Shown: piece after piece, positions 2,574-64,000 of the stretch | Numbering within the stretch: the stretch's first letter is position 1 | How the letters are laid out: each line of letters opens with the position of its first letter | Source of the DNA: Blasia pusilla | Lineage: Eukaryota | Direction: 5' to 3' | DNA: 64,000 bases | Assembly (NCBI GenBank): GCA_050084515.1 | Contig: CM114271.1 | Location: forward strand, 30,318,001 to 30,382,000 | Made by a program: the position numbers and the translations under genes | Notes under the pieces: model-generated | What the model was told of the DNA's origin: nothing | What the model saw: only the letters and a program-made list of their open reading frames with translations | Database searches by the model: none

Positions 2574-5484
2574 GCACAGGGTGTTCACTCCTACGAGGCG
2601 CAATCGGCACCTCCTTCCTCGAGCACCGAGCATCTCAATTTCTTTCTCTTGTAGACAATCAGCATGCGACTACAGGATCGAAAGTAGCTACCGACGCTTA
2701 GACGGCCTAGCGGGGTTCACGAGAAAGGAATCACACTGGTCGTTATAGATCCATAGTGAACGCAAAACACCACCCAAAGCCTGCACTATGTCACGATCAT
2801 CTCCGATCCTCCCTCCCCTCAAGATCGAGCAGCCGACGCACTGGGATGCCGACGACTGCGAGATCTATTCATCCATGTATCCATACCTGGCTGACGCCGC
2901 AGACCAATTCCGTCGCAGCAGCAGTCAGCACCCAATTCCTCGTCGACTCCTCCTCCCTCTTTATGAGATGAAAATCTCTCTGTATCTCTCTTTGCGCGCG
3001 TCTGCTGCTCCCGAAATCAATCCCACCTACACCCTCACTACTCTCTTATGTATCCCCCGGAACCTGCTCTCGTCCCGTCCTCGCTCCCTTCCTCCCTCTG
3101 TGCACTCAAGCACCCGCTGATCATGTGATGATGACGAATGAATCCATGAAGAGAAGAGGAATGTACTCTCTCACGACCAACCAGCACAAATGCAATGCCA
3201 GCTCAAATCAACCGAAACCAAGTCAATCATCGTTCCTCTAAGCAATCGTTCCTCTCCTTCCCTTTTGGCCTACCCGGCGACCTCCGCTCTCTCAATTCAC
3301 TCCTCCTGCTTCCGCCCCTGCCCTCTCTCTTTTTCTCTCTCTCCCTCTGTCCGTGTCACTGTCTGTCTCACTCACTTCCTCCGGGGATTTCCGTAGAGCG
3401 GCGGTTTCTTCGGCTGAAAGAGCTGCTTCTCTTTGGGGCAGGGACAGGGGCAGGGAAGTGAGTGGGCTTAGCTTTGAGCTCCAGTCTCACGGCCCAAAAG
3501 GCGAGGGGTGATTCACCAGCGCTGACAACTGGGGCCTGGCCAAGGTGGCGACAAGTGTCCACCCTGGCGAGATTTAATTGGCGATCGCTGTCGGAGGATG
3601 CAAATGTCGCCACCTGGTGCTGAGCTGGTGGAGGGAACAGAGGAGCACATGAAAGAGGGGGGAACATACCATCACGCGCATACCGTAGCTATTTATTCAC
3701 GCCTTCGTACAGGAACCTTTAACGGAACACGTAGCTCGATACTGGCGCTCGGATGGGCATCTGAACGACTTCCACTCATCCACCTCCTTTACACCGAGTC
3801 CATATGTACTTATTCCTTTTTCTTGGACAGGTATACCTTTGTCGGGCCTTCTTCAGCGCAGGCGTTGGATCGCATATGACTGGCTAGTATTAACACCCGC
3901 GTGACGGTGGAGCCCGTATGCTTCGGATTCTCCAGCAGAAAACTGAAAAGACTGCACTCTTTAGTATGTATTCGAACGAAGAAAAAGATAGCCCGGATAA
4001 AACGGGGAGATGAAAAACTCGTGGATTCATTAAACTAGTGGTAGCACCGCGACTAGTCCTGTTGTGAAATTTTTATTTCTTTTTCCATAGGTCCATAGAG
4101 GGGAAAACATTTTTTGTTGTCACCAAATAGTAAATATTTTCTTGTTATCCAGTTGTCACACATCAAACAAAGAGGTGTTTGTAAATCAAGAAGGCATTCT
4201 CCAATAATAATGAGTAGCTGAAGGTCCTAAACAACTCCCAAGAAACGGAGTATATGTTTGTCATCCAAACATCAACTCATCATCATTTTCATCATGCCAA
4301 CAAACTTCAATTGCATCTTGCTTATCTAGTATGAGTTATAACTCAACCGGTTTGCATCTTCCTTGAATCTTCCAAATTGGTGTACCGCATAAAATTCATA
4401 CTCCCACAACAACAAAGCCCATATGGCAAGCTTCCGTATACACTTGAAAAACTCCATTTACCATTTAATTGGATGAGAGACTTATGAATGTATGAATTTG
4501 ACTCACATCCATAAGATGTGGAATGAATGAGATAGTCTCTATCTTCATTTGATAATCATTGAGTCCACCTAGGTATGCTATATGATCCATGTACTCAATT
4601 TGGTTTTAAAAGAACTTGCATTTGCCTATATGTAACTTCAACCCATATAATTTATTATAATCATCAAAATATGTTTGGAAGATATCATTGAAAATCCTCA
4701 ATCATGATACTAAAGACTATATTGGTATGAATGTACCTCCTAGAAAAATTTAAACCTTCCAAGATTCTATCTATGAGTCTCTAAAGCTCTACATGAATGT
4801 TATTTAACCTAAATGGTAAGAACTCCATTGGTACAAAAAGTCCTTCTCATGACAATCGATTCCCCAAAATATCATCTTCTGCTTATCCTCCAACTCGATA
4901 GGTATGAGGACGTGGAGGCATCCCCTGCCACCTTTAGATCTTTAACCTCCATCAAAGATCAGCTCAAGGTGAAGCCCGAAATATCTCTCACGTGTATGGC
5001 TACATGTCTAGTTATAATCACACTAAGATAAGGGTGGCCTATTCCTAAATCTTAAACCCTATCTTGAGCCACCTCATACATAGACTAATATAGTAGGAGA
5101 TGCCACCTGTAGTCCACTTTATTGTCAAAACTCTCGCGGACAATGTGATTCTCCACACAATGTCATCCACTAAGAAAAACTTGAGCCTTGCTGCCTAGTG
5201 TAAGCTAGAATATAATGGTTGTGGTCATGGTTTGCCGTATCTTCCCGTAGCCCTTGATCCCATGACTCTATCTCAAGCAAATTGAGTGTGTTGTAGCATT
5301 GATGAAGATTTTGTCACTCGTGTTGTCTACCTCAAAGATGACATGCCCATCGTCAACACTCTCTCCTCAAGTATGTTGAGCTCAATATGCTCCACCAAGA
5401 AAAATACATGAGAGTAGGTGAACCAACATGTAAGAGAGTCACATCCCACACTCTCTTTCACAACTCATGGTCTACCATTGCATA

Positions 5485-6994
5485 CATTAGAAGAAAAACA
5501 ACATTTTTATGACTCAAGCTTGCTTGACTCATACATTTAGTCATAAAGAAAAAGAATGACTCACTTAGTCTTCACATGGATTTTGAGTCATAATGAGTCA
5601 GAAGCTAGTGATAGAGTATGACTCACGAGTCATAAGAACTTGAAAATTAGAAAGGGCTCACTTGAGTCATAAAAGCTATCCCATCTAGATAATCATTGCA
5701 GGTTGGACTAGAATAGAACTTGCTAAAGTAGAGACCTATTTCTAAAGAAATGAATAGATTAAAAGCCACATGATCAATGCATTTATAATGAAACCAGACC
5801 AGAAGGTAGTTTGAAAACCATTACGCAAGACTCGCTGAAAAGAAAAAAAAACATATTTAGAAGGTAATCACTTCTTCTGAAGTTATAGATCTGGTTGCAT
5901 ATAATCCTGGAGGAAATGTCAATAGAGCAGAATGAATGAATCAATCTACTCGTTTCTTAAGGTGGATTTTAGGCCAAAGTACTAAGGAGCCAACTGCATC
6001 ACCTAAAATATATTGGCATGGCTCATCGTGCTCATTACCTTGCCGTAATTTGAATTCTGGCTCCAAAACACTTGTCAAGTTCACAGGAACTACACCACAT
6101 GGGATCTCCTTCCCATGGAATAGATCCCTACCTGCCAAGCCTGTAACTAATCCATAAGCAATAATTTGGCGGGTTTTTCTCGTCTCGCTTAAGGAGACGT
6201 GATCACCAATAAATTGGGATCGGTTGGTTATGATTTGTCTTGATTGAGAGTCAAAAGTGTAAAAAATGACTCACTAAGTCCCAAATTAGTGATTGAATAA
6301 GTCATTATTAAAATTTCACTTTGAAGTCAAGGAGTCATATGACTATAGGATGAGTCATAACATTGAAGTGAAAAGGGTCATGATATGTCTCGGTGATGAG
6401 TCAAACGATCACTAGTGACTCACTCAATCACAATGCTAAAATTGTAGTCATGGCCTGACTCATTGAGTCATCAAAATTTGAAGTCTCAGTCAATAAATGA
6501 CTCTACGGAACACAAAATATCTCCATGAGTCCTACATATTGACCTTTTTGAATCATCCAATGACTCAATGAGTCAAAGCATTGAACAATTTGTACACATT
6601 CATGACTCAGTAAGTCATATATTTTGAAAATATGAGTCATAAGATGACTCAACCAGGCTTGACACATACAAAAGTTCAATCACATAATCACTCAATGAGT
6701 CATTTACTTTATACACTTTGAGTCATCTACTAACTCAATAAGAAGTGACATGGCATTCCATGTCAACAATGACGTGTCGTATTTTCTCCATGTCACGTGT
6801 ATGGTCCAAACCAGACATTAGTCATTTATGGATGACTGAGAAAGAATAAATAACTCAAGTCAACTTAGTCATTGTAATATATGACTTGTCTTTTAAGATT
6901 GGTGGAGCCACTAGTCATTCTCAATCATACTTTGCACAATATGACTCTAGCGAGTCATTCTTTCTAGTCATAAAAGTGATATTTTCTTCTAGTG
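5485..6994. mobile_element. Non-autonomous CACTA (En/Spm) DNA transposon, 1510 bp
   Basis: Left TIR cattagaagaaaaacaacatttttatgact (CACTA mutated to CATTA); right TIR reverse-complements to cactagaagaaaatatcacttttatgact; 3-bp TSD ATA on both sides (5482-5484, 6995-6997); about 20 TGACTCA/TGAGTCA subterminal motifs. Confidence 0.9.
5941..6138 (-). pseudogene. C-terminal remnant of a CACTA TNP1/TnpA-like protein
   Basis: HGKEIPCGVVPVNLTSV...ILGDAVGSLVLWP resembles the C-terminal domain of En/Spm TNP1-like proteins; it lies in the motif-free core of the CACTA element. Confidence 0.55.
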
Positions 6995-9900
6995 ATATCA
7001 AAATTGAGTTGTGTACGCCTTTGATCCATTACACCATGAGTCGTCATGATCAATAGTTGAAACTGTGCATAGGCCACTCGTAGACTCTCCCCTGCTCTCC
7101 ATTGAAGCTTATGAATTAACTTCAACTTTTCGGTCCTCATCCCTTGATAGCTCCTTTCTAACTCTCATACGAACTCAACTAGTGGGTTGAACATGGGAGG
7201 TACTCAACTGGCCCTAGTTATGATGTTTAGATTGAAAACTCCTCCATGTATATCCTCCATACAGATATTGGGTGCCATTATAGTCGCCACATCATACATC
7301 GCACACCATGTGAGTGACACATACCTTAGAGACCAAAATAGTCTCCATGACTTGATCTCCACATCATGGAGATCCAAAACTTGTAATAATCATCTATTAG
7401 AGAGCCCTCCAAATGCTGAAAAAGTTCCTTCCATACCATGAAGGGGGTCAAATCCCTATTGGTTTAGCATCCTCACCAATTGTCCAACTCCTTTATAAAA
7501 TCATCCAACTTGATGGTTCCTACCATGCTTGAGAACTGTCAAGTCCATAAGCATTGGGGTTCCCTTGTGGACATACAGGTATCCTGATCATCCATATCCC
7601 ACAACAATGGTCTGACAACACGTACATGGAAGTTGCTTTTATGAGTTATACAAAACACGATATTATCTTTAGATGAGAATTTTTGTGTAGTAGAAATGCA
7701 CGCACAAGCGCAACTAATTTCTTGTAGAAATTGAGTATTAGAAGAAAATCTACCATAGAAGGTTAGAACATTTGTGAACTTGATGTTTCATGTGATAGTT
7801 TATACGTCCAAATTTTTTCTTGGAACAATAATGTGTAGAAGCGCAAATTTTTTTTAGCAATTAAGTTATGGACTGTATAACAACCAATGTCACAAATAAG
7901 TCAAGAAAAAGATGTTAAAATTTCATGAGCTTGTAGATCTTTGAGTAGAGAATATGACTCAAAAAATGGTGCACAATTTCATTGAGGGTTGGAAAAATGA
8001 TAGCTATTTTTATGTCAAATATGGCCTTGGGAGGGAAAAAGACAAAATAAAGGTTGGTTTTTTAGTAAATTTTAAAATAAACCCATGGGCAGTAGCCATG
8101 TGCACACATCTAAGACATAACAACCATCTATCTGCCCTCACATCGACCATTCGTGAGGCCATTTGTCGATCGTTAAGAACAGTACGTTAGACCGATGATT
8201 TGAAAGTACCTTCTTATTGATATGGTTAATCCATACTTTTTGCTCATGGATATGTCATGTTTTATGGTAGCTTCTTTGAGTCGAGCATGACTCTCATAGC
8301 CTCAATGTATCGCCGATTTCCACATCATGCCACTTGTGGCTATGCCGCACCATTAATATTACTATCAGAAAGCCGCATTAATATTTAGGAGTAGGGTGCT
8401 TGCTAAGATGCCTCTTCTTGATTTTACTTCAATTTCGGATGATATGCCTCTCCATACCTGTAATCTACATAATGGAGGAAATATCTTGCAAGTAAATGGA
8501 ATTTGTGAGTCAATTAAGTTGGTTGACTCAAATGTTGATGAGCCAAAAAAACAACCTTCTAATATTGTTCCACGTACATGATGTTGATGAGCCTGTTGTG
8601 AGGACCTCTAATACTCTTCCAAGTATTTTTGGTATGAAGTTGGTCTTGATTAGTAAGTTAAAGTTCCTTTGAAGACTAACGGGGCATTAGAAATCAGAAT
8701 TGAAGAAGAAATATTTTACAGCTTAGGAGAGGATCGAGAGAAAAAGATATGGTAGGTAACTTGGAATATTCATGACATTATTGCTTTTCAAAGATTTAGC
8801 TCCAACTTTACTTTTGATGGTTTTGATGATGCATGGGTTCATATGAATTAATCGATATGAACTCTTTTTTGCATTGTAGAAGTTCATCTTTAATATGTCG
8901 ACTGTGACATTCTCTTGAAGTATTCCTAACAATGGTTGGAGCATTATAATGGTAAAGGCTATAGTCAGTTTAAATTTTTTTATGATATTCATGTATTAGC
9001 TAGAGGAGATTTCCCTATTTCTGATTCTGATACATTGTTGTAGCAGTTCATGATCAATGATGAGATTTTTTTTTAACTATGGGCTGAAAAAGTTGGTTGC
9101 ATGACGGGATGAGAAGAATATCTGCAAAAGCACGTAGAAATAAATGGCACATTACATTAATTCCTCTCGGATGTGTTAAGGCGGATTTTCTACACATCAA
9201 TGATCCATAAGTAGAACTTCCATTTCCAAATATGGGAGATGATCCTCCTCAAACACTCTTGAAGCATGCTTTGAATACTTCTATTCTCTTGTTTAAGAGA
9301 TCTATAAAAAAAGTGCCCCACACCTTGAGAAGCTAACTTTTAGTTGTAGTGCATATTCATAGTTTACTCAATCATTTTTTTAAACTTTTTTGTTATTGAG
9401 CTTTAATGTACTCTAGCATTTTTATTACAAAATATCTTGTGGTAGCTCTCTTCTGTTTAAAGGCACCACTTTAACTTCTCTTTTCAATTTGATTGAAAAT
9501 CAAACTGACAATTTTCAGTTTGATTGTATTTTATCTAAGTTTTTAGTCTGAATGTATTTGATCTCAATTTTCCTTGTGTAGGAGACATTGCCTTCTCTCT
9601 TATTATCCTCTTTTCTCAAAAAATTTTAATGGTATTTACTTTTGTAAATGTAAAAACCTATGGATTCCATAATACAAACCATAATTTATTCTATCCTTAT
9701 GGATTGCAATAAGGAAAAAAATTTAGCTAGTAACAAAAACAAAGTAGAAGTAGTCACAAGATGAGTTTCTAGTCACTACTTTCAACTAGTAATAGCGACT
9801 ATACTTCAATATGTGTCAAGAATGGGATTGTATGGCAACTAGGATCAAGTATGCCCAAGATCAAAAGCCTTCAGTAGACATCTGTATAACTATTTTTAAG

Positions 9901-10557: not shown

Positions 10558-11200
10558 TGTCACGTCCTTTAGGATAGATCGGTGAGATCTAGTAGAGCGT
10601 CTTCAAGAGTAGTGGAGGACAGGCCTAGGAGGTCGAGGATGACCTAGTGAGGCCCCAGGAAACTTGAGAGAGCAAGTTTCCCCTTCGTTTTGGCTCATTT
10701 GGAGCCATATTGAGGAACTTACTATTTTAGGTAAGTACCATTTTGAGTATATGATCGAATTTCTATTTTTGGTAAGTGGCCCCTGACCTCCTACATCAGG
10801 TTAAGAGCCAAGGAGGTGAATTGGGAGAATAGGTTACCATGGAGAGAGCTTGGGAGAGGGGAGGGGTGTATATCTTAAGGAGAGAGAGCTTGAGAACTCA
10901 TTCTCTCTTTGTTGAAGCTCTTGGCATGAGGCGGCGGAGTTATGGTCCCTTGCCTTATGAGTGTAATCCAAGCCTCTCATTAAGAGAGTGGGTTTGGTTT
11001 GACATGAGAGAGAGTGCACACCTTTGAGAGCTATGGTATGAGATTGTGTAGAGAGAGATTGGATCTTACTTTATTGGAGATATTTTGGTACTTCTTGTCT
11101 CGTTGTTTGGATGCCATGAGTTAGCATGGGATTGTGCGTGTTTGTGTGTATGTTCGGTGACAACGATGTATGTTGTATAGCGATGTGTATGCGCACGACA
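10558..11200 (+). mobile_element. Solo terminal repeat (B+A, 643 bp) of gypsy family 2
   Basis: TGTCA...CGACA ends; 4-bp TSD CGTT (10554-10557, 11201-11204); reverse complement is similar along its length to 56617-57259. Confidence 0.92.
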
Positions 11201-30600: not shown

Positions 30601-30772
30601 AATTTTGGCCGCACACGCAACCTCTATGGAGAATTGCATCTCTACCTTGCTTCGTTGGAGCCCAAGTTGGGGACTAGGAGCTCATTCACAAGAGTCCGCC
30701 CAAACTAGGTCCCCAAATTGAGCCTATTCAAATAGGTTGGTTAGATCTAGCTTTCCACATCGATGTTGCAAC

Positions 30773-30911
30773 TGTCGTGCGCATACATATTGCTACACAA
30801 CATACATCGCTGGTTACATCTACACCACACAACACCGATCTTCCCCACACATGGGTCGATCCACACATGTACAAAAATCATCTCATACATATACATGGAG
30901 ATCACACAACC
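30773..30911. repeat. Element 1 repeat A (139 bp, terminal copy)
   Basis: Matches 31394-31532 with about 7 substitutions; absent from the other end of the element. Confidence 0.93.
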
Positions 30912-31391
30912 AAAAATAAAGAGTAGTAAAAATGGCACACCCGGCCGAAAACTCCATTCCTCAATCTACATTGGCATATCGAGCCTCGTCCACCTTATGC
31001 TATCAAGGAATCCAGACGCTAGCACCCTAGTCCTATCTCACACACATACAAGGGAGGTGCTCCAACGGCCCAACATGAGAAAGATGGCTTAGGAAAGCCA
31101 TCTTCCTCTCTTATATAGAGTTGGGAAGAGCCAAAAGGCTCTTCCCCTAAAAATAACCCTCTTCTTAGTAACCTGCGCACATAGGTTACGAGGGGCGAGT
31201 GACCTGGTCAACAAGTCACCCGGCTATGAAAGACCTCAACATGAAAGTTATTAGAAACGACGTTCCTGACACAATGGACCTATTCTCAACCTCATCCGAC
31301 CCCGTGGGACAAAGTTACACTCAAGATAGTCCACTGGCTCCTACGCCCTATCCACGATAGATCTCGGCCTATCGGCTACTCAGATGTGATA
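30912..31391. repeat. Element 1 repeat B (480 bp, 3' copy)
   Basis: Matches 39299-39778 with about 15 substitutions counted by eye, mostly transitions. Confidence 0.95.
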
Positions 31392-31393
31392 GC

Positions 31394-31532
31394 TGTCGTA
31401 CGCATACATATCGCTACACAACATACATCGGTGGTCATATCTACACCACACAACACCGATCTTCCCCACACATGGGTCGATCCACACACGTACAAAAATC
31501 AACTCATACATATACATGGAGATCACACAACC
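31394..31532. repeat. Element 1 repeat A' (139 bp, internal copy)
   Basis: Separated from B by the dinucleotide GC (31392-31393); abuts the G-rich tract on the internal side. Confidence 0.93.
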
Positions 31533-31542
31533 GCCCCCCTAG
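31533..31542 (-). promoter_or_regulatory. Putative polypurine tract, upstream of A' rather than of B
   Basis: Minus strand TAGGGGGGC; equivalent TAGGGGGCG at 41336-41344 and TAAGGGGGCA at 57389-57398 in family 2. Confidence 0.65.
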
Positions 31543-31607
31543 CTGGCAGTTGGATCCCCCCAACTCCAGAAAGAAAATATCACATCTCTCTGATATCACC
31601 TACTACC

Positions 31608-32870
31608 CTATACACATCTCGGACACATCCATCGTCCCGTGGGAACCACATCAACATGGGAGTCAGACATGACATATGCCACCCTCGAGAACAACCATCA
31701 CATACCAACATGGTGGCTGCATCCCTCGCAGATCCGCACATCAGACACCGCAAGCCTACAGGTACCACTGCCAAGCTCGGATCCACCGTCCCATCTATGT
31801 TCGGAAGAGGACATGACGCACAATTGCGCACATGATCCTTCCAAACCATACCATCCCGTCCCTCCAACATGAGGACTCCGGTCGGTAATACCTCGCGCAC
31901 ACGTAGGATTGTGCGCCCTGCAGTGACATCTAGCGTCGTGGGTGCCGCCTGCTCTAAATACACGTAATCTCCAGGTTGAAACCTCCTAATCCCTAGACGA
32001 TAACCTCCTCCACGAATATTCGTGTACCTCAATGTATCTCTATGCTCAGCAATAGCTAAGTTCTCAAAGGCCATAAGCATAACTCTACGAAAAACCTCCG
32101 CCCTCTGAGAACATGCTTGTACCCACACATCTGGATCATCAAGATCTAACACCTCTGCCATGTCACGTCGAATCGCTGCAGGTAAATCTGGCTCTCTCTC
32201 AAAGAGCAAAAAGTACTGTGAAAATGACGCCAAGGATGCCTACCGACTAAAGCAAAAACCCATAGCCAACCATGGCAACTGTAGGTCCCACTCCCTCAAC
32301 TGTCCCCGCTGCATGCCATACTTGCGCAATCCTCTCTTCACCGTCTGTACCACTCTCTCCGCCAACCCATCCGCCTCAGGATGATCTCTGGACGTGGTGC
32401 AGTGTTCTATCAGCGCCTGATCACACAAGGCCTAAAACTCTCCCCTGAACTCGGTACCGTGGTTAGTCAACACCTCCGCCAGTGCATCAAAGTGACTAAG
32501 CACATGATCTAGAAACGCATAAGCTGTTCCCTTGCTCGCCTTGCCTGGTAGTGCCACCAACTCTATCCACTTGGAGAAATGCTCCACCATGACCAACACG
32601 TACATATGATGACGCCGCGTCAATGGCAAAGGTCTCGCAAAGTCTAAACTCCACCGATAACCTAAATCCATAACTGGAAAAGGATGTAACTGCGGAGTGG
32701 GAGCATTGAAGGATGCTCGCACTCTGTCACATACCATACATCCGCCACAAATGCTGTACCCGGTATGCATGCGCGCCACCAATCTTGAACACGAGTAAGT
32801 CGTAAGTCCGCTTTACTCCGAAATGTCCCAACTCCTAATGGGCATGTCGTACTACACGTGCTCGCTAGGA
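31608..32870 (-). pseudogene. Element 1 integrase (HHCC + DDE core) with C-terminal PHD finger
   Basis: HAH-x-LGHFG...C-x2-C; RWSLDFARPLP...VEHFSKW...TNHGTEF; HPEADGLAERVVQTVK; CLMC...LVCDGCSRGWHMSCL...(frameshift)WMCPRC. Contains stops. Confidence 0.9.
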
Positions 32871-33309
32871 AGGATGAGGTACCACTCGTATCCTACCATC
32901 TCCCCATACCCGCAAAATATGAGTTCCCTCCCACCTGAACCTCTTGGCTCTCTGTAGGATCCGATCCCGCTCCCTAGCACTCACTGTACTTGCAATGACG
33001 CCAGTGCATAAGAACTCCACAACCTCCACGTCGTCATGGATATCACGTCCACCTGTCGCCTCCTCACTAACCTCCAGATCCAAAGACTCATCATCCAACC
33101 CCACCACTAGAGTCATCACCTGTGGCTGACCTGCTATAGTCAACCAACAAAGATAGGCAGATGCATGCCAACCGGGCACCATCTCCTCATCACTTTCTCC
33201 GTGCCATCGAGCTCTTGTGTCGTCTCTCTGACTCGAACATGGGTCACAACTCAACCAATCCGCATCCTGGTTCAGCCGACCTGGCCTATGAACCACCTCA
33301 AACTCATAC

Positions 33310-33965
33310 TCCTATAGTAATAGAGCCCACCTTGCAAGCTTTCCCGTAAGCTTGTCGGACTCCATCAACCACCTCAACGGCTGATGATCAGTGATAAGTG
33401 TGAAAGGGTTGCCGAATAAAAAGCACCTGAAATGTGCCACTGCCCACACTGCAGCCAAGCACTCTCCCTTGTAGGAGGTGTACTTCGCCTCTGCAATGTT
33501 GTTCGATCGGCTCGCGTAAGCCACAACGAACTCCCTCTCCTCGTCATCCCTCTGAGTAAGCACTGCTCCTAGACCCAACATGCTCCAATCCGTATGTAAC
33601 TGGAATGGGCGACCCCTAATCGGTCTCTGTTAAATGGGTGAGGATGTCAACATGTCCTTGAGCTCCTGAAATGCTCGCTCCTCATCATCTCCTCACAACC
33701 AAACCTGATCAAGTCTCGTCAACAAGGTCAAAGACTTTGCGATCGCACTAACACCCTTGACATACCATCGATAGAAGTTCGCCAGTCCAAGAAATGCTCG
33801 GACTCGACTCACATATGTAGGGCGTGGAATCTGCGCAATAGCCTCTACCTTCGTCTACTAAACGCCTAACCCACTCGGGTATATGGTGTGTCCCAAGTAC
33901 TCAATCTGCTCCTGAAAGAATCTGCACTTGCCTGGATGTAACTTCAGTCCATGTTACTGCAATCC
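33310..33965 (-). pseudogene. Element 1 RT C-terminal part and RNase H; RT core deleted
   Basis: HGLKLHPGKC..YLGH, FLGLANFY, FQLHTDWS...LGAVLTQ...VVAYASR...TDHQPL. About 740 bp present in element 2 (43795-44540, including YIDD) is missing at ~33965. Confidence 0.88.
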
Positions 33966-34108
33966 ATGTAACACTAGGGTTGCTATGTAGCAACCCTAGC
34001 CACCTCCGCAACAGGCACTCCACTTTGACCTCCTACACCATGCTCCACATCCGAAAAATGAACATGTGCTACTCTAGCCGCCTTCGCACTCTCTGCTCGA
34101 ATGACGTC

Positions 34109-35860
34109 CTAGGAAGTCCATGGGTGCCTATCTCTCCTCGTCTCGCCCTCAGCCAATGCCTGTACAGAACCTTTAGGCAATTGTCCAACTCGTGGACGTG
34201 ACGACATAGATGACACTCGCATCCGTCTCTGCTCAGCCATACCTAGGTTGACTATCCATGTGAGACAGTTGAGGTCCATCGCCTGCTCCAACACGTGTCT
34301 CTGGGATGCCTCAATCATCCCTGGCACCGCCGTAGTACCGGTAGCGAACCCCATGGCGCGCTCGCGCTCATCAGCTGTAGGCTCCTCCAATGCTCCGGTC
34401 ACCTCATCCCAAATCATGCCTGGCCCTCCCTGACGAAAGGCATGGGATGCTGGGAAGCTCACCAACGTAGGTAAGGCTGCCCTCAACTCCCCCATCCTAT
34501 TGGTCATGGCCAACGGTGGTCTATCATCCCGTGTCACCACTAGAGATCGACGCCCTGAGCCCAAAATAGCATCCACTGTGAGATGTGGTGCTCTCTGGAC
34601 TCCATCGTACGCTCGACTCGCACTGTGATGGTATCGGTTCGTCCACCACAGTCGTGGACGATGGGCACGTGATCCAACTCTCGCCGCATCTAATAACACA
34701 GCAGGTCCCAACCAGAACCTCACCTGATACACACTCGTCATCACACGTGCACGAGTGTCTCCCAACAATGGCACGTTCTCCAAGATGTACGTTGGAGAAC
34801 ATGTCTGACTCTCCTGCAAGTGTTGTACTACTCGCAGCATCTCCCAAAACATCCCTGACCTCGGATCCTGCAATCCAAATCCTTGGCCAGCTGATGAATG
34901 ACACTGACATGGCCATCCAGCAATCACCAAATGAATGGTGCCAACTCTATGCAGATCTTGCGCCCCCACCAAAGAGATGTCGGCGGGTAGTGTATGCTGA
35001 TATCCCCATACTGCACATACCGACAACAACTCAGGATACCTCTGTACCAATCTCGCCACGTGACGTAATGATACTCGCCGTGCGGTCTGATCTCTCTCAC
35101 CATAAAGGTATTGATGCACCCGTATGCCCGCCTGCAATACTGCAGCCAATCCGGTGCTAATCCTTCCGAAGATATCTAACACCCTAACACCCTCCTCTGG
35201 GCACTGCCACACAACAGGTGTGGTATCCAGTGGGGTCAACGTCTCCACGCCAAGAGCCTGATCGCCACGTGACTCACGCTGCTCCGGGATAAAAGCATGA
35301 CTCCACGCGTGCCTCACGAGGTTGTTGGCACTCCTCTGTAGCTCTGGAGTTATACCCCACAATGGTGAAGAGTTCTCGCCAACATGGGAAGAGACACCCG
35401 CCATGGCCTGACTCTCTGCGGGACTATCTGCTACTAAGACATCCTCCACATGTGCGTTATCCTCCAACAACTCTCCTGGCCAGCTAACACTACCTGTGAA
35501 AGCCGCCAACGTGGTCACAGACTCGCCTCGTGATCGACCACCTCGTCCCGCAAACTGCACGGGTAAGTGACTCATCTGGTCGTCACCTGACCGCCATCTT
35601 GGCCGATAAGCAACGGTCTCCTCCCATAAGTCAAGGATGAATCCTAGGGGATATAACAATGTACTCCCCACCAACATATCGTACGACTCAACTGGTGTCG
35701 TAATTGCACGTGTGCGCACCATAGCACTATCTGTCTCATACTCTGGCTGGACTCTAACAACTATCTCCTCTCGAGTCATATATTGCGTGGGTGACATGCC
35801 CCCAATCGAGGTCTGTATCTGAAAGGGACAAGGCTCAATGTCGGCCTTTCGTAACCCCAA
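34109..35860 (-). CDS. Pol segment: aspartic protease C-terminal half plus Dnmt3-like C5 cytosine DNA methyltransferase (~34250-35190)
   Basis: 583-aa open frame with C5-MTase motifs in linear order: I VLDIFGRISTG, II YLYGE, IV AGWPCQ, VI ILENV, VIII RAHRPRLWWTN, IX ERERAMGF, X VLEQAM. Confidence 0.9.
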   Translation of the reverse strand: MGLRKADIEPCPFQIQTSIGGMSPTQYMTREEIVVRVQPEYETDSAMVRTRAITTPVESYDMLVGSTLLYPLGFILDLWEETVAYRPRWRSGDDQMSHLPVQFAGRGGRSRGESVTTLAAFTGSVSWPGELLEDNAHVEDVLVADSPAESQAMAGVSSHVGENSSPLWGITPELQRSANNLVRHAWSHAFIPEQRESRGDQALGVETLTPLDTTPVVWQCPEEGVRVLDIFGRISTGLAAVLQAGIRVHQYLYGERDQTARRVSLRHVARLVQRYPELLSVCAVWGYQHTLPADISLVGAQDLHRVGTIHLVIAGWPCQCHSSAGQGFGLQDPRSGMFWEMLRVVQHLQESQTCSPTYILENVPLLGDTRARVMTSVYQVRFWLGPAVLLDAARVGSRAHRPRLWWTNRYHHSASRAYDGVQRAPHLTVDAILGSGRRSLVVTRDDRPPLAMTNRMGELRAALPTLVSFPASHAFRQGGPGMIWDEVTGALEEPTADERERAMGFATGTTAVPGMIEASQRHVLEQAMDLNCLTWIVNLGMAEQRRMRVSSMSSRPRVGQLPKGSVQALAEGETRRDRHPWTS

Positions 35861-35863
35861 CGC

Positions 35864-38100
35864 TTAACACGCCGCCTTCCCTAACATCAAGGGTTGCGCT
35901 CCCAAATCAAGTAGGACGCGCTGCAGATGGTATACTGTCCCCGTCGGACTAACCAAGCAAAATACTCCACCTCGGTTATCTAGTAACACTACTCCAAGTG
36001 TCACCACTGCTCGCTCTATGGCCGGTCGAGTTGGCATATCTACCAACTTCGCCGCCGCCGCATGCCATGACTCGGTGGGGAACGTCCCGAGCACCCGCTC
36101 TGAGGGCAATTCCACCACCTCCTCAACTACCTCTGAACAAGAAGCAGTCATCTCTCCACGCTCACACAACGTGGCGACCAACCGGAACAGCTCAGCTGGT
36201 CCAACTCCCAACGTCGCCAACTCTATGGCGGAAAATAGTGGAGTTTGACTCACTCTGGCGGCCACCTCCAACACTATGGTCGACAGTGACTCCACTCGAG
36301 CCGGCATAGGAGTTGTCACTCCAACTCCTCATGAGGTTAACGTAGGTACTTGAGCTGTAGGCACCAATGGTCATCGAGGCACCATCGATGGTGTGTGTAG
36401 TGCCTCCGACAATGTGAATGACTATGGAACCCTGGCCTGCCGCCCGTCGGTCCCCTTTGGTGGGTCAATCTCAACTCCACCTCTCAATGGCTCGGTGCCT
36501 CTCGCAGCATCCCGAGTCACCACTATAGCTGCCTCAACCCAGGCTGCACTACACATAAATCCCAAACTGGCAAGATCCTCACCCGGGTCAGGATAAGAGG
36601 TAGAATCCGGAGTCACACTAGCTGCTCGCAGCTCCGTGCCTTCCCTAAGCTGCATCATCATCATGGCAGCAATCCTTTGCTCCAACTGATTGATGTGTGA
36701 GAGAAGTGTCGGCTCTGGTGCTCCTGCTCCTCTGGCTGGTGGTGGTCCTCTACCATCACGTCCAGGAAGACTCCCCGACCTCCTCCGGGACAACCGCCCC
36801 CAGGCCCTCGGCCTACCTCTGGACGTGCCCCTCGGCGAAGGTCAAAACATTTATCCCTAGTGTGACCATATCTATGGGAATAGTCACACTGGTGCTATGG
36901 TGGGGCTATCCTCTGTGGCTCCTGAGCAATGGGAGGCACTAGTGGTCTTTCCCATGCTGTGGGTAGTCTCTTTGCCTATGGGCCCCTCCACACGTCCAAC
37001 AAGACCACATCGGTCCTTGTTGGGCAACATATGTAGGTACGGGTTGTTGTCTCATAGGCTCACGGTACCCGCCCTGCTCTCTAGGCACACTCGCCCACTC
37101 CCGTGGTACTGGTGCTCGTTGTGGCACCTGTGGGGTCACCATCGCTCGTGGACCCGTCGACTCTCGAGAAAATCCAGCGGTCACTACCGGCTCCTCACTC
37201 ATGTTGAGCTCAATACGCTCAGACAACTTAAAGACCACCTTCAATGTGGGCTTCGCTGTGTGAATCAGCACCGCATCTCGGACTCTCTTCCGTAGTTCTC
37301 GGTCCAGAACCCCCTACCAATACTGGACTGACTGCGCCTCAGTCACTCCAAACGTAGCAATGATCAGCCTCCTCATGCGTGTGAATGCCTCTCTCGGACT
37401 CTCACCCGATCGTCGCTCAAAATCATGTAGACTCTTTAGCTTGTCGGTGCGTACGCCCTGGTAGCTCTTCCCCAACTGTCGGAAGAACTCCACTGTGGGG
37501 CTGAAGCTGGGTGGTCCTCTACCATCAGAGGTCTCTGCCACATCGCCCATCTCATTGCCCTCCTCTCCATCTAATCTCCGGGCTAATGGTGTGGATCTCT
37601 CTCCTCTCACAATCCCATCATATGCCTCGCGACCACTAGTGGACACATACCCTGGAGCCCAATACATCCTCTAGGCATCGATCTCTACTGAATATAGTGA
37701 TCGAAACTCCATATAGTCATCCATCGGAGGACCCTCCAAGTGCTGGAACGATCCCTTCCATGCCATGAAATGGTTGAATCGTGTCGGGGTCCGTATCTCT
37801 TGGAAATCACACCACGTGTCGAACTCCTGGATAAAATCATCTAAGTCGATGGTGCCCACTGCACCCGAGAAACGACGCATGCCCCGATGGCCCATGTCGT
37901 CCATCTCCTGCCAAGTACTACTGTCTCTGTCTGCGATCTCGTCACCAGACCTAATGTCTACTAATGAAGATCCAGCCACGTATGGATGTCGAGGTAGCTC
38001 CTCACTGGTAACCCCTCGGTATCTCAATCCACTCCGTGTCACACCACTACTACTGCTCGCACTACCCGGTTCTTCCGAACCCTGGAAGAATGCCGTGATG
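35864..38100 (-). pseudogene. Element 1 gag and protease active-site region, broken by stops
   Basis: RFSGAVGTIDLDDFIQEF (gag N-terminal-like), FERRSGESPREAFTRMR (MHR-like), CWTCGGAH zinc-knuckle remnant, RVLLDLGAQP protease-like motif. Confidence 0.8.
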
Positions 38101-39284
38101 ACAAACCCTGTCTCACCCGCTCAAGCACTCAGACTCATCGAGAGTCTCCCACACGCCTCACTAGCTCACCTATGCTAATATCAATCCCGTGATGACATAC
38201 CTGGCCTCACGCACACTCAACACTCGGGCTCACTATGAGCCTCCCAACTGATTCACCTAACGTAGCGACACTCTCTCGGGTCATACACGCGACCCCTACT
38301 CGGCAACCGCCGTATATCCACCAACATGCTACACATGAAAAGAATCTACACTCGTCACCATCACTGCACCCACCTAGCACCAGCTACTACCCGATACCCA
38401 ACACTATCAATCACACACGACAAGTGCGGGAAAAGGGACTCGAATGGATAACCTGATCACGCCCTCCAACCTGCTGCACCATCAACATGCACTCCTCCAC
38501 GTGATATGACAACCTCCGCAACAAAACACTCTCCTCGACCAACACGTCGATCCTCCCATCAACAGATGCAGACAACCTGTCGGCATCATGCGCACTGCCC
38601 CTCCATCGTCAACTCTCGCAACGCCCTATCGCGCCCCAAAAACATCATGTCGCGCAAACCTCTCCGTCCATCCCCACACGCGGCATGTAACCTGACTCAC
38701 CCTGGTCGGCTCCCACCTACCACGTACGCCCTGTCCGACCACGTGAACATGAGCTCGACCACATTTGGACTCTCAACGACGTCTCCATCCAACCATGTTC
38801 GGTCCTACCACGTTTCCCATGCGCAACCACGTCCAAAGGGGAAGAAAAAGAGTAGTAAATGTGAGAGGGGGGGCCTGGCCCGCACCCCTATGGGCCTCCC
38901 CAACTTTTGGGGTGAGAAATAAATGCGCTTGGGGGCGCGCCATCGCCCCCCGTCTGCTCGTCGCCGTCCGCCCGTCCGCGCCCGCCGACCTAAACGCCCA
39001 TCAGCGCCTCCGACGGCTGCAAGCCCTAACTCTCCTTCTTGCTAAATCTCGACATTCCCGCTACTAGACGACGCTATACCTCCCGTCACAACCTGCGCTA
39101 CACCCTGCTCCTGTCCCCCATCAATCCGCACCAACAAAATCTGAGAAAAACGGACAGCGCTTCCGCCCACGGCCTTCCAAACAGAAAAATGACAAATACG
39201 ACACCAACCAACGTCTCCACGGGCTCCCGACCAAGGCAACTCGCTTGCCTACCTGCAAACAACGAATTCCCACCAACCCCCTGA

Positions 39285-39298
39285 CATCTTTCTCATGT
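39285..39298 (-). promoter_or_regulatory. Primer-binding-site position, complementary to the element's own predicted transcript 5' end
   Basis: Minus strand ACATGAGAAAGATG directly follows repeat B; its exact 14-nt complement is on the same strand at 39473-39460. No tRNA-type TGG start. Confidence 0.7.
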
Positions 39299-39778
39299 AA
39301 AAATAAAGAGTAGTAAAAACGGCACACCCGGCCTAAAACTCCACTCCTCAATCTACATTGGCATATCGAACCTCGTCCACCTTATGCTATCAAGGAATTC
39401 AGACGCTAGCACCCTAGTCCTATCTCACACACATACAAGGGAGGTGCTCCAACGGCCCAACATGAGAAAGATGGCTTAGGAAAGCCATCTTCCTCTCTTA
39501 TATAGGGTTAGGAAGAGCCAAAAGGCTCTTCCCCTAAAAATAACCCTCTCCTTAGTAACCTGCGCACACAGGTTACCAGGGGCAAGTGACCTGGTCAACA
39601 AGTCACCCGGCTATGAAAGACCTCAACATGAAAGTTATCAGAAACGACGTTCCTGACACAATGGACCTATTCTCAACCTCATCCGAACCCGTGGGACAAA
39701 GTTACACTCAAGATAGTCCACTGGCTCCTACACCCTATCCACGATAGATCTCGGCCTATCGGCTACTCAGATGTGACA
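39299..39778. repeat. Element 1 repeat B (480 bp, 5' terminal copy)
   Basis: Direct repeat of 30912-31391; ends TGTGACA followed by the TSD. Confidence 0.95.
39497..39504 (-). promoter_or_regulatory. Putative TATA box of element 1
   Basis: TATATAAG on the coding strand, about 31-32 nt upstream of a CA initiator-like site at 39473/39472; conserved in the 3' B copy. Confidence 0.6.
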
Positions 39779-40959
39779 CAACCCTCATAACAAACAAACG
39801 CCAAGCACAACATTAGAATTCTAATGGGCTCATTCTAGTATGGTTTACATGTTGAAGAGGTCTCTTGGAAGAGGCGCAAGAGACAAAAAATATGAGACAC
39901 GAATAAGGTTGAGCATTTCATTCTTCTATAGTCACGACTAGGAAACCTAAACGAAACATGAACCAAGACTTGAGAGAAGTGGAGTCTAGGAAGAGAAGTT
40001 GCCAAAGAGGTGAGAACCCGATTTGGAATGTGACTAGCATTTAGGGTTTCAGCTATATTTTGGACCATAACTTTTAGTCCCTAGACCCATTTGGGAAAAT
40101 TAAGGTGTCGTTGGAAAGCTTATGCAAATCCAATTCCAACGCATCAAAAATCTTAGAAAAAAAATAAGCAGAGGATGAGAAACTTCTTTACTTCCTTTCA
40201 GTTGGGACCGTTGGGCGTGCAAACGCCGTTTTAGGTGCCTGGACTATCAAGAAGACTATCCTAAGTCTCAGAAGTCCTGCCCATATTGGGAAGCTAGGAA
40301 CAAGGAAGATTGGGCTTGACATATGGCCGAGTTGAGAACTGAGAGAGTTGGAAGATTGATTGGCCCAAACCAAATCTAACGTGAGTGTAAGTAGCCTTGT
40401 GAGCAGCGAGAGCATGTCCTACTAAACATACGCTTACACAACACTAAAGATTTAAATTCAAGAGGAGTAGGCATACAAAAATCGAACTCATTCACATTCA
40501 GAGGAGTGCACATAAGTCATAAGAGTCACCGAGCAGGCTTTTATTGTTGCTCAGGAATCGTATCTAATTAAAGCGGGAGCCTTAGGGGATTAGGCGTTCT
40601 GATAGGTGCAACAGAGGGTTTAATTTACAGTTTACACTTCCAAATGGAAGCAAATGGAGGGGCAAGGCTTGGGTGATGGCCATTTTACAGATTTTTGGCG
40701 GCCCGGTAAATCCAAAGGGTTGCGCCTACCAGGGCGGTCGGCGTACCGCGGTTTAGGGTCTAATGGGCGGAGGGCATACCAGAGTGTTGCATCCCGATTT
40801 GATCGCAACGAAGTGGGGTGGGCATGGGGTTCACATGTCATAGTGCCCCCGGTGCCGCATCACCATTTGGTCGCACGACAAAGTTTGGTATTATGGTAGT
40901 GGGTGAATCTCAAATGTCGCAATTTGGCGCCTTTTCCAAATTGCCAATTGCTACTTCGG

Positions 40960-56616: not shown

Positions 56617-59600
56617 TGTCGTGCGCATACACATCGCCACACAACATACATCGCTGTCACCGAACATACACACAAACATGCACGATCCCATGCTGACTCA
56701 TGGCATCCAAACAACGAGACAAGAAGTATCAAAATATCTCCAATAAAATAAGATCCAATCTCTCTCACAACATCATAGTTCTCACATGTGTGCACTCTCA
56801 CATATCTCTCTCAATGTCAAACCAAACCCACTCTCCTAATGAGAGGCTTGGGTTACACTCACAAGCCAAGGGACCATAGCTCCACCGCCTCGTGCCAAGA
56901 GGTTCAACAAAGAGAGAATAAGCTCTCAAGCTCTCTCTCCTTGAGGTATGTCCCTCCCCTCTCCCAAGCTCTCTCCATGGTAACCTATGCTGCCATGTCA
57001 CCTCCTTGGCTCTTGACCTGATGTAGGACGTCAAGGGCCACTAACAAAAAATAGAAAGTCAATCATATACTCAAAATGGTACTTACCTAAAATAGCAAGT
57101 TTCTTAATATGGCTCCAGATGAGCCAAAACAAAGGGGAAATTTGCTCTCTCAAGTTTCCCAGGGCCTCAATAGGTCATCCTCAATCTCATGGGTCTGTCC
57201 TCCACTACTCGCGAAGGCGCTCTACTAGATCTCACCGATCTATCCTAAAAGACCTGACAATTGTCGTGCGCATACACATCGCTAAACAACATACATCGTT
57301 GTCACTGAACACACACACAAACACACATGATCCCATGGTAATTCATGGCATCCAAACAATGCACAAGAAGTACCAAAATATCTCCAATTGCCCCCTTAGC
57401 TTGGGGTTAGGTCCTCTAACTCCAGATAGCCATCTATCCCTACCTACCATGACATACATCTCTTGTACGCTAAGAGCAAGAAGGTCGCGTGCTCATGTGG
57501 CCCAATCGTTAGTCGCCTTCTTGTCATCCATGTCACAGACATAAGTAAGAATATAGAACTACCTACTCTATGTACATCAAGGATACATCCATTGTCCATG
57601 AGGAACCCTAGTGAGAGGTGGCGTCAAGCATGCCATATGCCATCCTCTCGAACATCCATCACAAACTAGCATAGTGGCTGCACCACGGGCAGAACCACAC
57701 AACATACATCACAAGCCTGCACGAACTACTGCTAAGCTCGGATCAACTGTATCGTCAATGTTTGGAAGGTGACACGGCGCACAGTTACGCACATGATCCT
57801 TCCAAACCATATCATTGCGCCCCTCCAATAAGAGAACACCTCATGGCAAAACCTCATGCACTCTCAAGATGGTGCGCCTTGTAGTCACATCCAACGTCGT
57901 GAGCTTCGTCTGCTGCAAGTAGACATAATCTCCGTGTTAAAACCTCCGGATAGGATGAAACCACCTCCCCGAATAGTCGCATACCTCAACGTATCCCGAT
58001 GTTGCGCAATCGCCAAGTTCTCAAACGCCATGGGCATCACTCTCCGAAACAACTCAACCGTGTGAGAACATGCTTGCATCCATACATCAGGATCATCAAG
58101 GTTCAACACCTCACCAACATCTTGACGAATAGTTTTAGGTAAATCTCGCTCTCGTCCAAACAAAAGCAAGTACGGTGAGAAAGATGCTAAGGATGTCTGC
58201 CTGCTGAATTTGTATCCCATCGCCAACCACGGCAACTAGAGATCCCAATCTCCTAGGTGACCTCTCTGCAAGCCATACTTGCGTAGTCCTCTCTTCATCA
58301 TCTACACAACCCGCTCCCCTATTCTATCCACCTCAAGATGATCTCGCGAAGTAGTGCGGTGGTCGATCAATGCCTGATGACACAAGGCCTAAAACTCCCC
58401 GCGGAACGCTGTACCCTGGTCTGTCAACACCTCAACTGGTATGCCGTAATGACTCAACACTCAATCTAGGAAGGCATATGCTAATCCCTCACTCGCTTTG
58501 TTAGGCAATGCAATGAACTCTATCCACTTTGAGAAGTGCTCAATCATCACCAACAGATAACGACTATGACGCTCTGTCAAAGGCAAAGGTCCTGCAAAAT
58601 CCAAACTCCATCTATAACCTAAACTCATGATCAAAAGTGGATGCAACTGTGGAGTCGGAGCATTGAACGATGCTCGGACTCAATCATACACCATACATCT
58701 AGCAACAAAGTGATAAACATAAGTCTGCATGCCTCGCCACCAATACTGAATCTGGAGCAAGTTATACGTCCCCTTCACTCCAAAATGACCCAACTCCTCG
58801 TGGGCATGATGCACCAAACGTGCTCTCTGCAAAGAATGAGGAACTACACGCACTCTACCATCCTCCCACACTCGCAACACATGTGCTCCCTCCCACCCGA
58901 ACCATCTGGCTCACTCTAGGATCCGATCCCGCTCTCTAGCACCCATTGTGCTCGTGACGCTGCCAGTATGTAGGTACTCCAAGACCACTCCATCGTCATG
59001 AATGTCTCGGCCACCTGTTATCTCCTCACCGGCCTCTGCATCTAAGGACTCTCTATCAGACCTCGCCATCGAAGTCTCAAAAATTTGGTTGTCCATAGCT
59101 AACAAGCCCAAATAGGCTCGCCAAATAGGTTGACACATGCCATCCTAGCACCAACTCCTCATCACTCTCACCATGCCAACGAGCTCCAGTCGCATCTCGC
59201 CAACTCGGGCATGGATTACGGCTCAAACCATCTGCATCTTGGTTGAGCGTCCCAAGTCTATGCACCACTTGGAAGACTTACTCCTGCAACAAAAGAGCCC
59301 ACCTTGCAAGCTTCCATGTAAGCTTGTCCGACTCCATCAACCACTTAAGTGGTTGATGATCAGTAATGATGGTAAAGGGATTGCCGAATTGATAACATCT
59401 GAAATGTGCGACAGCCCACACTACAGCCAAGCACTCACCCTCATACGAGCTATACTTCGCCTCTGCAGCGTTGTGCAAGTGAGTAGCGTAAGCCACCACG
59501 AACTCTCTACCATCATTGTCATGTTGGGTGAGCGTGGATCCAAGCCCCAACATGCTCCAATCGGTATGCAATTGGAAAGAATGCCTCTTAATCGGTTTCC

Positions 59601-63659: not shown

Positions 63660-64000
63660 TGTTGTGCGTATATATATCGCTACACAACATACATCGTTGG
63701 TCACATCTATACCACACAACATCGATCTTCTCCCCACACGGGTAGATCCAGACATGTATAAAAATTAACTCATACATATACATGGAGATCACACAACAAA
63801 AATAAAGAGTAGTAAAAACGGCACACTCGGCCTAAAACTCCACTCCTCAATCTACATCGGCATATCGAGCCTCGTCCACCCTACGTTATCAAGGAATCCG
63901 GACGCTAGCACCCTAGTCCTATCTCACACACATACAAGAGAGGTCCTCCAACGGCCCAACATAAGAAAGATGCCTTAGGAAAGCCATCTTCCTCTCTTAT
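63660..64000 (-). mobile_element. Element 4: A+B terminus of a family-1 copy nested in the gag of element 3 (continues past the window)
   Basis: TGTTGTGCG start; A ~63660-63797 and B from ~63798 match 30773-31114. Confidence 0.9.

Follow-up and report, generated by a model that had tools for sequence, protein, structure and literature searches.

Element identity and coding content

The locus raises the question of how a retroelement without a tRNA-type primer site beside its 5' repeat might start reverse transcription, and whether the first nucleotides of its own RNA could serve as the primer. The window (the whole stretch of DNA analysed, 64,000 nucleotides) contains at 39778-30773 on the minus strand a Ty3/gypsy-like copy that is degenerate and carries a C5 DNA methylase as well as a PHD finger; it is referred to here as element 1. 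The internal region and the coding features detected in it were the following:

31392-39284, minus strand: internal region, with a leader, a gag-like part, the DNA methylase, an RT remnant/RNase H, the integrase and the PHD finger
35863-34109, minus strand: DNA methylase ORF (PF00145, E 3.4e-9), between the protease-like and RT parts
33629-33312, minus strand: RT remnant/RNase H, of the RT-linked RNase H type (PF17917, E 6e-33)
32812-32432, minus strand: integrase, rve core (PF00665, E 8.7e-8)
32239-31580, minus strand: PHD finger (E 1.6e-6), located 3' of the integrase

The Pfam order in element 1 (PF17917, PF17919, PF00665) gave an RT-RNase H-integrase arrangement with a Ty3-like RT, and this domain order, the rve integrase, the TG...CA ends and the short target duplication are those of Ty3/gypsy (Metaviridae-like) elements. 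The reading frames were broken by many stops and frameshifts, and the N-terminus of the RT was absent relative to P0020. Pfam detected no chromodomain after the integrase, where the PHD finger is found instead. Among the 17 ORFs scanned there were 0 matches to a tyrosine recombinase (Phage_integrase), while the rve integrase was found.

The methylase ORF had 42 homologues, and the top named ones came from the liverworts Calypogeia and Marchantia (52-58% identity) and also from Sphagnum. The RT-RNase H part of a Marchantia relative matched liverwort, Klebsormidium, Closterium and green-algal proteins. Many of the RT relatives carried RT, RNase H, integrase and PHD finger together and some carried the methylase, and the closest relatives bear PF00628 (PHD). 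The nearest solved structure was the Ty3 Gag-Pol (E 4e-101, with the relative P0047 as query), and a viral-contig scan with a 14-protein alignment returned 22 pattern matches with no relative among them. A C5 DNA methylase domain thus lies inside the pol of a Gypsy element, as in Gypsy-DNMT3 elements. Because of its methylase, RT/RNase H, integrase and PHD content and of its relatives, element 1 is grouped, on these domain and homology matches, with the streptophyte Gypsy-DNMT3 elements (Klebsormidium nitens type).

Repeat layout and integrated ends

The junction read-out gave the layout of element 1 as B-P-internal-PPT-A-GC-B-A, where B and A are the two repeats, P is the 14-mer at the inner border of the 5' B and PPT is the polypurine-like run. 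The corresponding junction string was GTTG / TGTCAC...B / 14-mer...internal...AGGGGGGCGG / A...GACA-GC-TATCAC...B / A...GACA / GTTG. The repeats, junctions and flanking duplications, in the direction of the element, were the following:

39779-39782, minus strand: 5' copy of the target-site duplication, GTTG, 4 bp (junction read-out)
39299-39778, minus strand: 5' B repeat, starting TGTCAC (self-BLAST), with an inferred U3-like part at 39778-39474 and an inferred R-like part at 39473-39299 (175 nt)
31531-31540, minus strand: Q, polypurine-like run AGGGGGGCGG, directly 5' of the internal A copy
31394-31532, minus strand: internal copy of repeat A, ending GACA (self-BLAST and junction read-out)
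31388-31397, minus strand: junction J, GACA-GC-TATC (junction read-out), which is GACA-GC-TGTC in nearly all RNA reads
30912-31391, minus strand: 3' B repeat (self-BLAST)
30773-30911, minus strand: terminal copy of repeat A, ending GACA at 30773 (self-BLAST and junction read-out)
30769-30772, minus strand: 3' copy of the target-site duplication, GTTG (junction read-out)

Self-BLAST aligned the B pair (39776-39299 vs 31389-30912) over 478 nt with 14 differences (97.1%), and the internal and terminal copies of repeat A, which is about 139 nt long, differed at 7 of 140 aligned positions. The divergence of the two pairs was comparable (14/478 vs 7/140, Fisher p 0.29), and such equal divergence fits one event making both pairs. 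The end of B (5' vs 3' B) and the start of A (internal vs terminal A) coincided to the base at 30912/30911, with the B copies diverging after 39299/30912 and the A copies starting to agree at 31532/30911. At the B/A junction (30910-30911) copies differed in their count of G residues, with two in element 1 and one in a copy at 63797.

The integrated copy begins with B and finishes with A (TGTC...GACA), and it is flanked by a 4-bp target duplication. A TGT(C/T)A...(G/A)ACA unit with a 4-bp duplication was found in all three testable copies, namely element 1 (GTTG), copy X (GTCC) and a solo B2-A2 unit (CGTT). The polypurine run stood directly 5' of A in all three copies that retain this region (element 1, X and Y), so that in element 1 it precedes A and not B. 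With the letter seen in the RNA reads, the A-to-B junction is a 10-bp palindrome, GACA-GC-TGTC; this other letter at position 31390 was carried by 37/38, 61/61 and 50/50 of the first-mate-on-plus reads in the three RNA runs, and copy Y reads GACA-AT-TGTC at 57265-57256.

Two equal complete LTRs were not found, as only B stands at the 5' end and A-GC-B-A at the 3' end. The repeat order is DIRS-like instead: element 1 reads B-internal-A-B-A, and Y has A2-B2-A2 at its 3' end. Three other explanations of the layout were considered and rejected. An LTR consisting of A-GC-B and integrated as such is contradicted by the 5' B, which has no preceding A. A normal layout with an LTR consisting of B-A is contradicted by the lack of an A behind the 5' B and, in two families, by the extra A with its polypurine run in front of the 3' B. 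A later insertion of a small A-B-A element does not agree with the equal divergence of the B and A pairs or with a target duplication that spans the whole unit.

Second family and other features of the window

Copies X and Y and a short unit belong to a related family 2, which is about 74% alike to family 1 internally:

45246-41208, minus strand: copy X, with a truncated B2, an internal part, the polypurine run and A2, flanked by GTCC
10558-11200, plus strand: short B2-A2 unit, flanked by CGTT
63659-56617, minus strand: copy Y, with the polypurine run-A2-AT-B2-A2 at its 3' end and with gag and the 5' repeat missing

In copy X, about 205 nt of B2 were joined straight into the C-terminus of the methylase, the end of B2 was lost, and the copy ended in A2 with no B2-A2 following. 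Recombination between the two A copies or the two B copies of a full layout could give rise to X and to the short unit. A family-1 B-A end (64000-63660, minus strand) abutted Y at the point equivalent to just after gag, and with the missing parts of Y this arrangement looks like a nested insertion running off the end of the window. A further stretch at 4335-7538 on the minus strand was AT-rich (GC 0.33-0.38) and matched the same protein family weakly in gag-like and RT-like parts; it is probably an old decayed relative, and no repeats belonging to it were found in the window.

The 14-mer and its complement

The sequence-only reading of this locus had claimed that the 14 nt immediately inside the 5' B repeat pair perfectly with 39473-39460, that this partner starts 31 nt downstream of a TATA motif and that no TGG-type tRNA site adjoins B. 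The three features concerned were the following:

39285-39298, minus strand: P, candidate self-primer binding site ACATGAGAAAGATG, adjoining the last base of the 5' B (39299)
39460-39473, minus strand: CATCTTTCTCATGT, predicted first 14 nt of the RNA and partner of the 14-mer, with the start placed by its spacing from the TATA motif
39497-39504, minus strand: TATA motif TATATAAG (minus-strand reading)

All three claims held on recomputation. ACATGAGAAAGATG is the exact reverse complement of CATCTTTCTCATGT, and the flanking positions mismatch on both sides, so that the match is exactly 14 nt long. CATCTTTCTCATGT begins 31 nt after the first T of TATATAAG, and the partner of the 14-mer is also present in the 3' B at 31086-31073. 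TGG was absent from the first 21 nt after B and first appeared at about +22; a displaced tRNA site at this later TGG was set aside as too far from the repeat. ARAGORN found 0 tRNA genes in the window, and Rfam matches in the window were likewise 0.

When the 99 nt after B were shuffled 20000 times and offsets of 0-5 were allowed, a 14-nt complement to B arose in 0/20000 shuffles, and the maximum was 13 nt, reached once. Across the window on both strands, 40/127010 14-mers were preceded within 481 nt by their reverse complement. Between the first 100 nt after B and the whole 9-kb element there was only one reverse-complement match of at least 9 nt, which was that of the 14-mer. A wider search for reverse-complement words of the repeats yielded mostly the repeat copies and nothing further. 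The 14-nt complementarity is far beyond chance.

The comparison with family 2 was confined to the copies in the window. The predicted family-2 RNA start had no reverse-complement partner there, and neither copy keeps the end of its 5' B2; a search with the family-2 start at up to 2 mismatches gave 2 matches, both being the B2 copies themselves, vs 0.95 expected. The B-to-internal border is present in only one copy within the window, the degenerate element 1.

Hairpin and RNA folds at the predicted start

A 14-bp hairpin was predicted at the start of the putative RNA:

39464-39495, minus strand: 14-bp hairpin, with its left arm at 39495-39482, its loop at 39481-39478 and its right arm at 39477-39464

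Its left arm comes directly after the TATA motif, and the first 10 nt of the predicted RNA lie within its right arm. The hairpin had an energy of -24.2 kcal/mol and a z of -4.92, and equally good folds were obtained in 0/200 shuffles. Family 2 has a hairpin of other letters at the same place (z -2.53 in Y and -0.64 in the short unit). A hairpin over the predicted RNA start is thus retained in both families, at 39464-39495 (minus strand), 10868-10920 (plus strand) and 56899-56951 (minus strand).

In the minimum-energy fold of 39473-39265, nucleotides 1-10 of the RNA pair with the 14-mer. Taken over all 209 nt, the leader folded no better than shuffled sequences (z -1.51, with 14/200 folding as well). 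An RNA starting at 39473 would lack the left arm of the hairpin in its 5' copy, leaving that copy free for the 14-mer, and could form the hairpin in its 3' copy.

RNA reads and DNA contigs

From three raw RNA runs with the same species label, 455, 442 and 500 reads aligned to 9151 bases; these were mostly 90-95% alike to the element and hence derive from other copies of it. The reads were mainly first mate on the plus strand, and therefore mostly in the sense orientation of the element, given that in most stranded libraries this orientation represents the sense RNA of a minus-strand element. Reads crossed the stretch from A through the junction into B (29, 50 and 40 loose-end reads at 31386 in the three runs) and also the B/A junction at 30910 (depth 11, 15 and 6). 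One base was omitted at 30910 in 3/11, 1/15 and 4/6 of the RNA reads and in 17644/83606 of the DNA-contig depth (about a fifth). Of the RNA reads covering the conserved final 40 nt of A (31386-31430 and 30773-30812), most ran on into family-2-like B2 starts, and family-2-like copies seem to be more strongly transcribed in the three runs. The element family appears to be highly repeated in the host sequencing contigs and transcribed in the sense direction.

The only clustered RNA fragment end was at 31112 in one run (X20), with 5 molecules at a depth of 9; overall, read depth was too low for a start to be located. In the 5' B the equivalent position is 39499, which falls within the TATA motif, 26 nt before the start predicted at 39473. 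The cluster counts weakly against the predicted start, and its source may instead be read-through RNA of the 3' B, or else the ends of alignments.

In the X1 DNA contigs, the end of B with 13, 11 and 9 nt of the 14-mer was joined at 31520/39286, 36130/39288 and 31531/39290, respectively, in one contig each. Two of these joints enter A (31520, and 31531 with six other letters between) and one enters the internal region at 36130. Since three contigs retain the B end with a partial 14-mer, the adjacency of B and the 14-mer recurs in other copies. The two contigs that read from B through the partial 14-mer into A look like end-to-end junctions keeping a remnant of the primer site. Many variants of the B-to-A junction were present in the X1 DNA contigs, several with small losses.

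The leader at 38656-39267 is GC-rich and had almost no X1 depth although the adjoining repeat is extremely abundant (0 in bin 38656-38961 and 374 in bin 38962-39267, vs 77287 in the B bin). The leader after the 14-mer may be private to few copies or poorly sequenced, and the 5' region may not be typical of the family.

Proposed self-priming and rival explanations

It is considered moderately probable that the 14-mer serves as the primer-binding site for the minus strand in a Ty3/gypsy-like Gypsy-DNMT3 element with self-priming of the Tf1 type. Transcription would begin in the 5' B, some 31-32 nt past the TATA motif, and the RNA would loop back across about 160 nt so that its first 13-14 nt pair with the 14-mer adjoining the end of B. 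A cut by RNase H behind the duplex would leave a free 3' OH, from which a short first cDNA would copy the 175-nt R-like part of B and jump to the matching stretch in the 3' B, and the plus strand would be primed at the polypurine run directly 5' of the internal A copy. Self-priming had already been proposed in the sequence-only reading, and it is retained as the best available reading on account of the complement, the position at the border, the 31-nt spacing and the lack of TGG; the start predicted there found no support among the fragment ends, whose lone cluster is at 31112.

The main rival, which is judged unlikely, is that the 14-mer is the partner or switch of a regulatory long-range pairing and that the primer lies elsewhere; dimerisation, packaging, translation or strand transfer might be controlled in this way, in competition with the hairpin arm. 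Such a role would suit the double use of 39473-39464 as the right arm of the strong 14-bp hairpin (z -4.92), the hairpin with different letters at the equivalent place in family 2, and the last 10 nt of the 14-mer, which differ from the left arm of the hairpin at one position. Against this, the 14-mer lies exactly at the repeat border, the usual location of a primer site, no alternative TGG primer site adjoins B, and the complement reaches 4 nt past the hairpin arm and stops exactly at the expected TATA-driven start. The recurrence of the B-14-mer adjacency in three separate X1 contigs (with 9-13 nt of the 14-mer) counts against a further explanation, in which aberrant reverse transcription or a rearrangement left the 14-mer as a scar with no role in replication, confined to this copy or to a small subfamily. 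This is thought improbable, even though the leader 3' of the 14-mer is nearly absent from the X1 DNA contigs (depth 0 and 374), element 1 is degenerate and the window holds a single 5' border, as a random rearrangement is not expected to give the exact complement of the RNA start at offset 0.

It is very improbable that a host small RNA (such as a half or fragment of a tRNA) acts as the primer and shares the sequence of the RNA start by coincidence. Priming by half-tRNAs is reported for some plant Ty1/copia lineages in the part of the source considered (PMC6317226), but neither a TGG nor a recognisable tRNA 3' end is present in the 14-mer, and a tRNA match would leave unexplained why the complement lies in the R-like region of the element itself, 31 nt after the TATA motif. 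Coincidence of the two 14-nt stretches is hardly credible: short inverted matches are common in repeats, yet 0/20000 shuffles reached 14 nt, such a match was seen at only 40/127010 positions of the window, and the match here falls on two independently meaningful boundaries. The self-priming reading is the one carried into the model below.

Proposed circular-permutation model

Under the usual rules of reverse transcription in LTR elements, the primer site and the polypurine tract mark the ends of the linear cDNA. In element 1 the candidate primer site comes after the end of B and the polypurine run before the start of A, and the repeat that they delimit is therefore A-GC-B. The border of B with the internal region had been regarded in the sequence-only reading as a true cDNA end; it would mark a cDNA end, but the terminal repeat comprises more than B and this border is not the integrated end.

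An RNA from the 5' B, primed at the 14-mer and with its plus strand started from the polypurine run, would yield a cDNA with A-GC-B at both ends, and the integrated copy is a circular permutation of this expected linear cDNA. A circle that joined the end of B to the start of A and was then opened by the integrase at the GACA-GC-TGTC palindrome in the repeat would give exactly B-14-mer-internal-polypurine-A-GC-B-A with TG...CA ends. This model, with a circularised intermediate deduced from the order of the repeats, is put forward tentatively and judged less likely than not. Foamy virus and HIV-1 integrases are reported, in the portions of the two papers considered, to cleave palindromic LTR-LTR junctions (PMC1180852, PMC1905944), which makes the circle-opening step chemically plausible. 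A wider form of the model, in which the cDNA ends and the integrase ends are out of register and the circle is opened by a DDE integrase throughout the methylase- and PHD-bearing Ty3/gypsy branch of the green lineage, is possible but doubtful.

The primer-site and polypurine ends of the cDNA, which would differ from the integrase ends, offer a first mechanistic handle on the DIRS-like repeats of this group. If true, the out-of-register model explains how a Gypsy element can have DIRS-like split repeats together with target-site duplications, and circular DNA would be an obligatory integration intermediate for a DDE-integrase retroelement. If the circular step is real, it bears on the old question of circular retroelement DNA as an integration substrate.

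Comparison with known systems

Element 1 resembles the retroviral 2-LTR circles, as far as these are treated in the portions considered of PMC1180852 and PMC1905944, in that abutted integrase ends form a palindrome (GACA-GC-TGTC in element 1), which an integrase could open to yield ends competent for integration. In retroviruses the junction occurs only in circles, between two whole LTRs, whereas in element 1 it is templated and inherited.

A Dnmt-type methylase inside the pol of a Gypsy element is described for KnitGypsy-Dnmt3 of Klebsormidium nitens in the sections of de Mendoza et al. 2018 (PMC5890265) that deal with it, and the name streptophyte Gypsy-DNMT3 appears in the accessible part of a 2026 preprint (bioRxiv 10.64898/2026.05.21.726589). 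The host is Klebsormidium in the former case, and the host of element 1 is liverwort-like. The legend of Fig. 4c in PMC5890265 gives the Klebsormidium element a DIRS repeat structure with Gypsy domains, so that the DIRS-like layout is not new. The main text of that paper, supplements aside, contains 0 occurrences of "primer binding", and its passages on the Klebsormidium element, again supplements aside, describe neither target duplications nor a junction palindrome. For element 1, the present analysis adds the target duplications, the TG..CA ends, the palindrome at the junction, the polypurine run and the self-complementary 14-mer. A literature search, supplements aside, found no earlier description of a self-priming site in Gypsy-DNMT3 elements among the texts it covered.

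For SymbioDIRS the repeat order is given as "A-coding region-B-A-B" in the relevant passage of PMC5890265. Element 1 is like the DIRS order (PAT/Ngaro, SymbioDIRS) in having one repeat at the left, both abutted internally and one again at the right end. It differs in its rve integrase, in the lack of a tyrosine recombinase in the 17 ORFs scanned and in its 4-bp duplication and TG...CA ends. DIRS elements are not known to have a target duplication or TG...CA ends.

Self-primed reverse transcription is established for Tf1/Tf2 of fission yeast, in which the primer-binding site is complementary to the start of the element's own RNA. Element 1 shares with Tf1/Tf2 a site directly after the repeat that is the complement of the first bases of its own RNA (here predicted), partners well over 100 nt apart, and the lack of a tRNA-type site. 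The complement in Tf1 is reportedly 11 nt long, and that of element 1 is 14 nt. Element 1 also differs from Tf1/Tf2 in having no chromodomain, in the PHD finger after its integrase, in the DNA methylase in its pol, and in its split repeats (B...A-B-A) in place of two equal LTRs. The chromodomain that marks the Tf1/Sushi-Tcn1 chromovirus clade is thus not a feature of element 1.

Among plant elements, self-priming has been predicted from sequence for the Tcn1 chromoviruses of mosses and club-mosses and for the Ty1/copia lineage TAR, according to the passages concerned in Neumann et al. 2019 (PMC6317226). The words "Marchantia", "liverwort" and "PHD" have 0 occurrences in the text of that paper, supplementary tables aside. 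Element 1 is like Tcn1 and TAR, as these are presented in the same passages (PMC6317226), in being a plant LTR element without a tRNA-type site and with predicted use of the start of its own RNA. A self-priming signature in the methylase-carrying streptophyte Gypsy group would widen the range of the mechanism beyond Tf1/Tf2 and these two predicted plant lineages.
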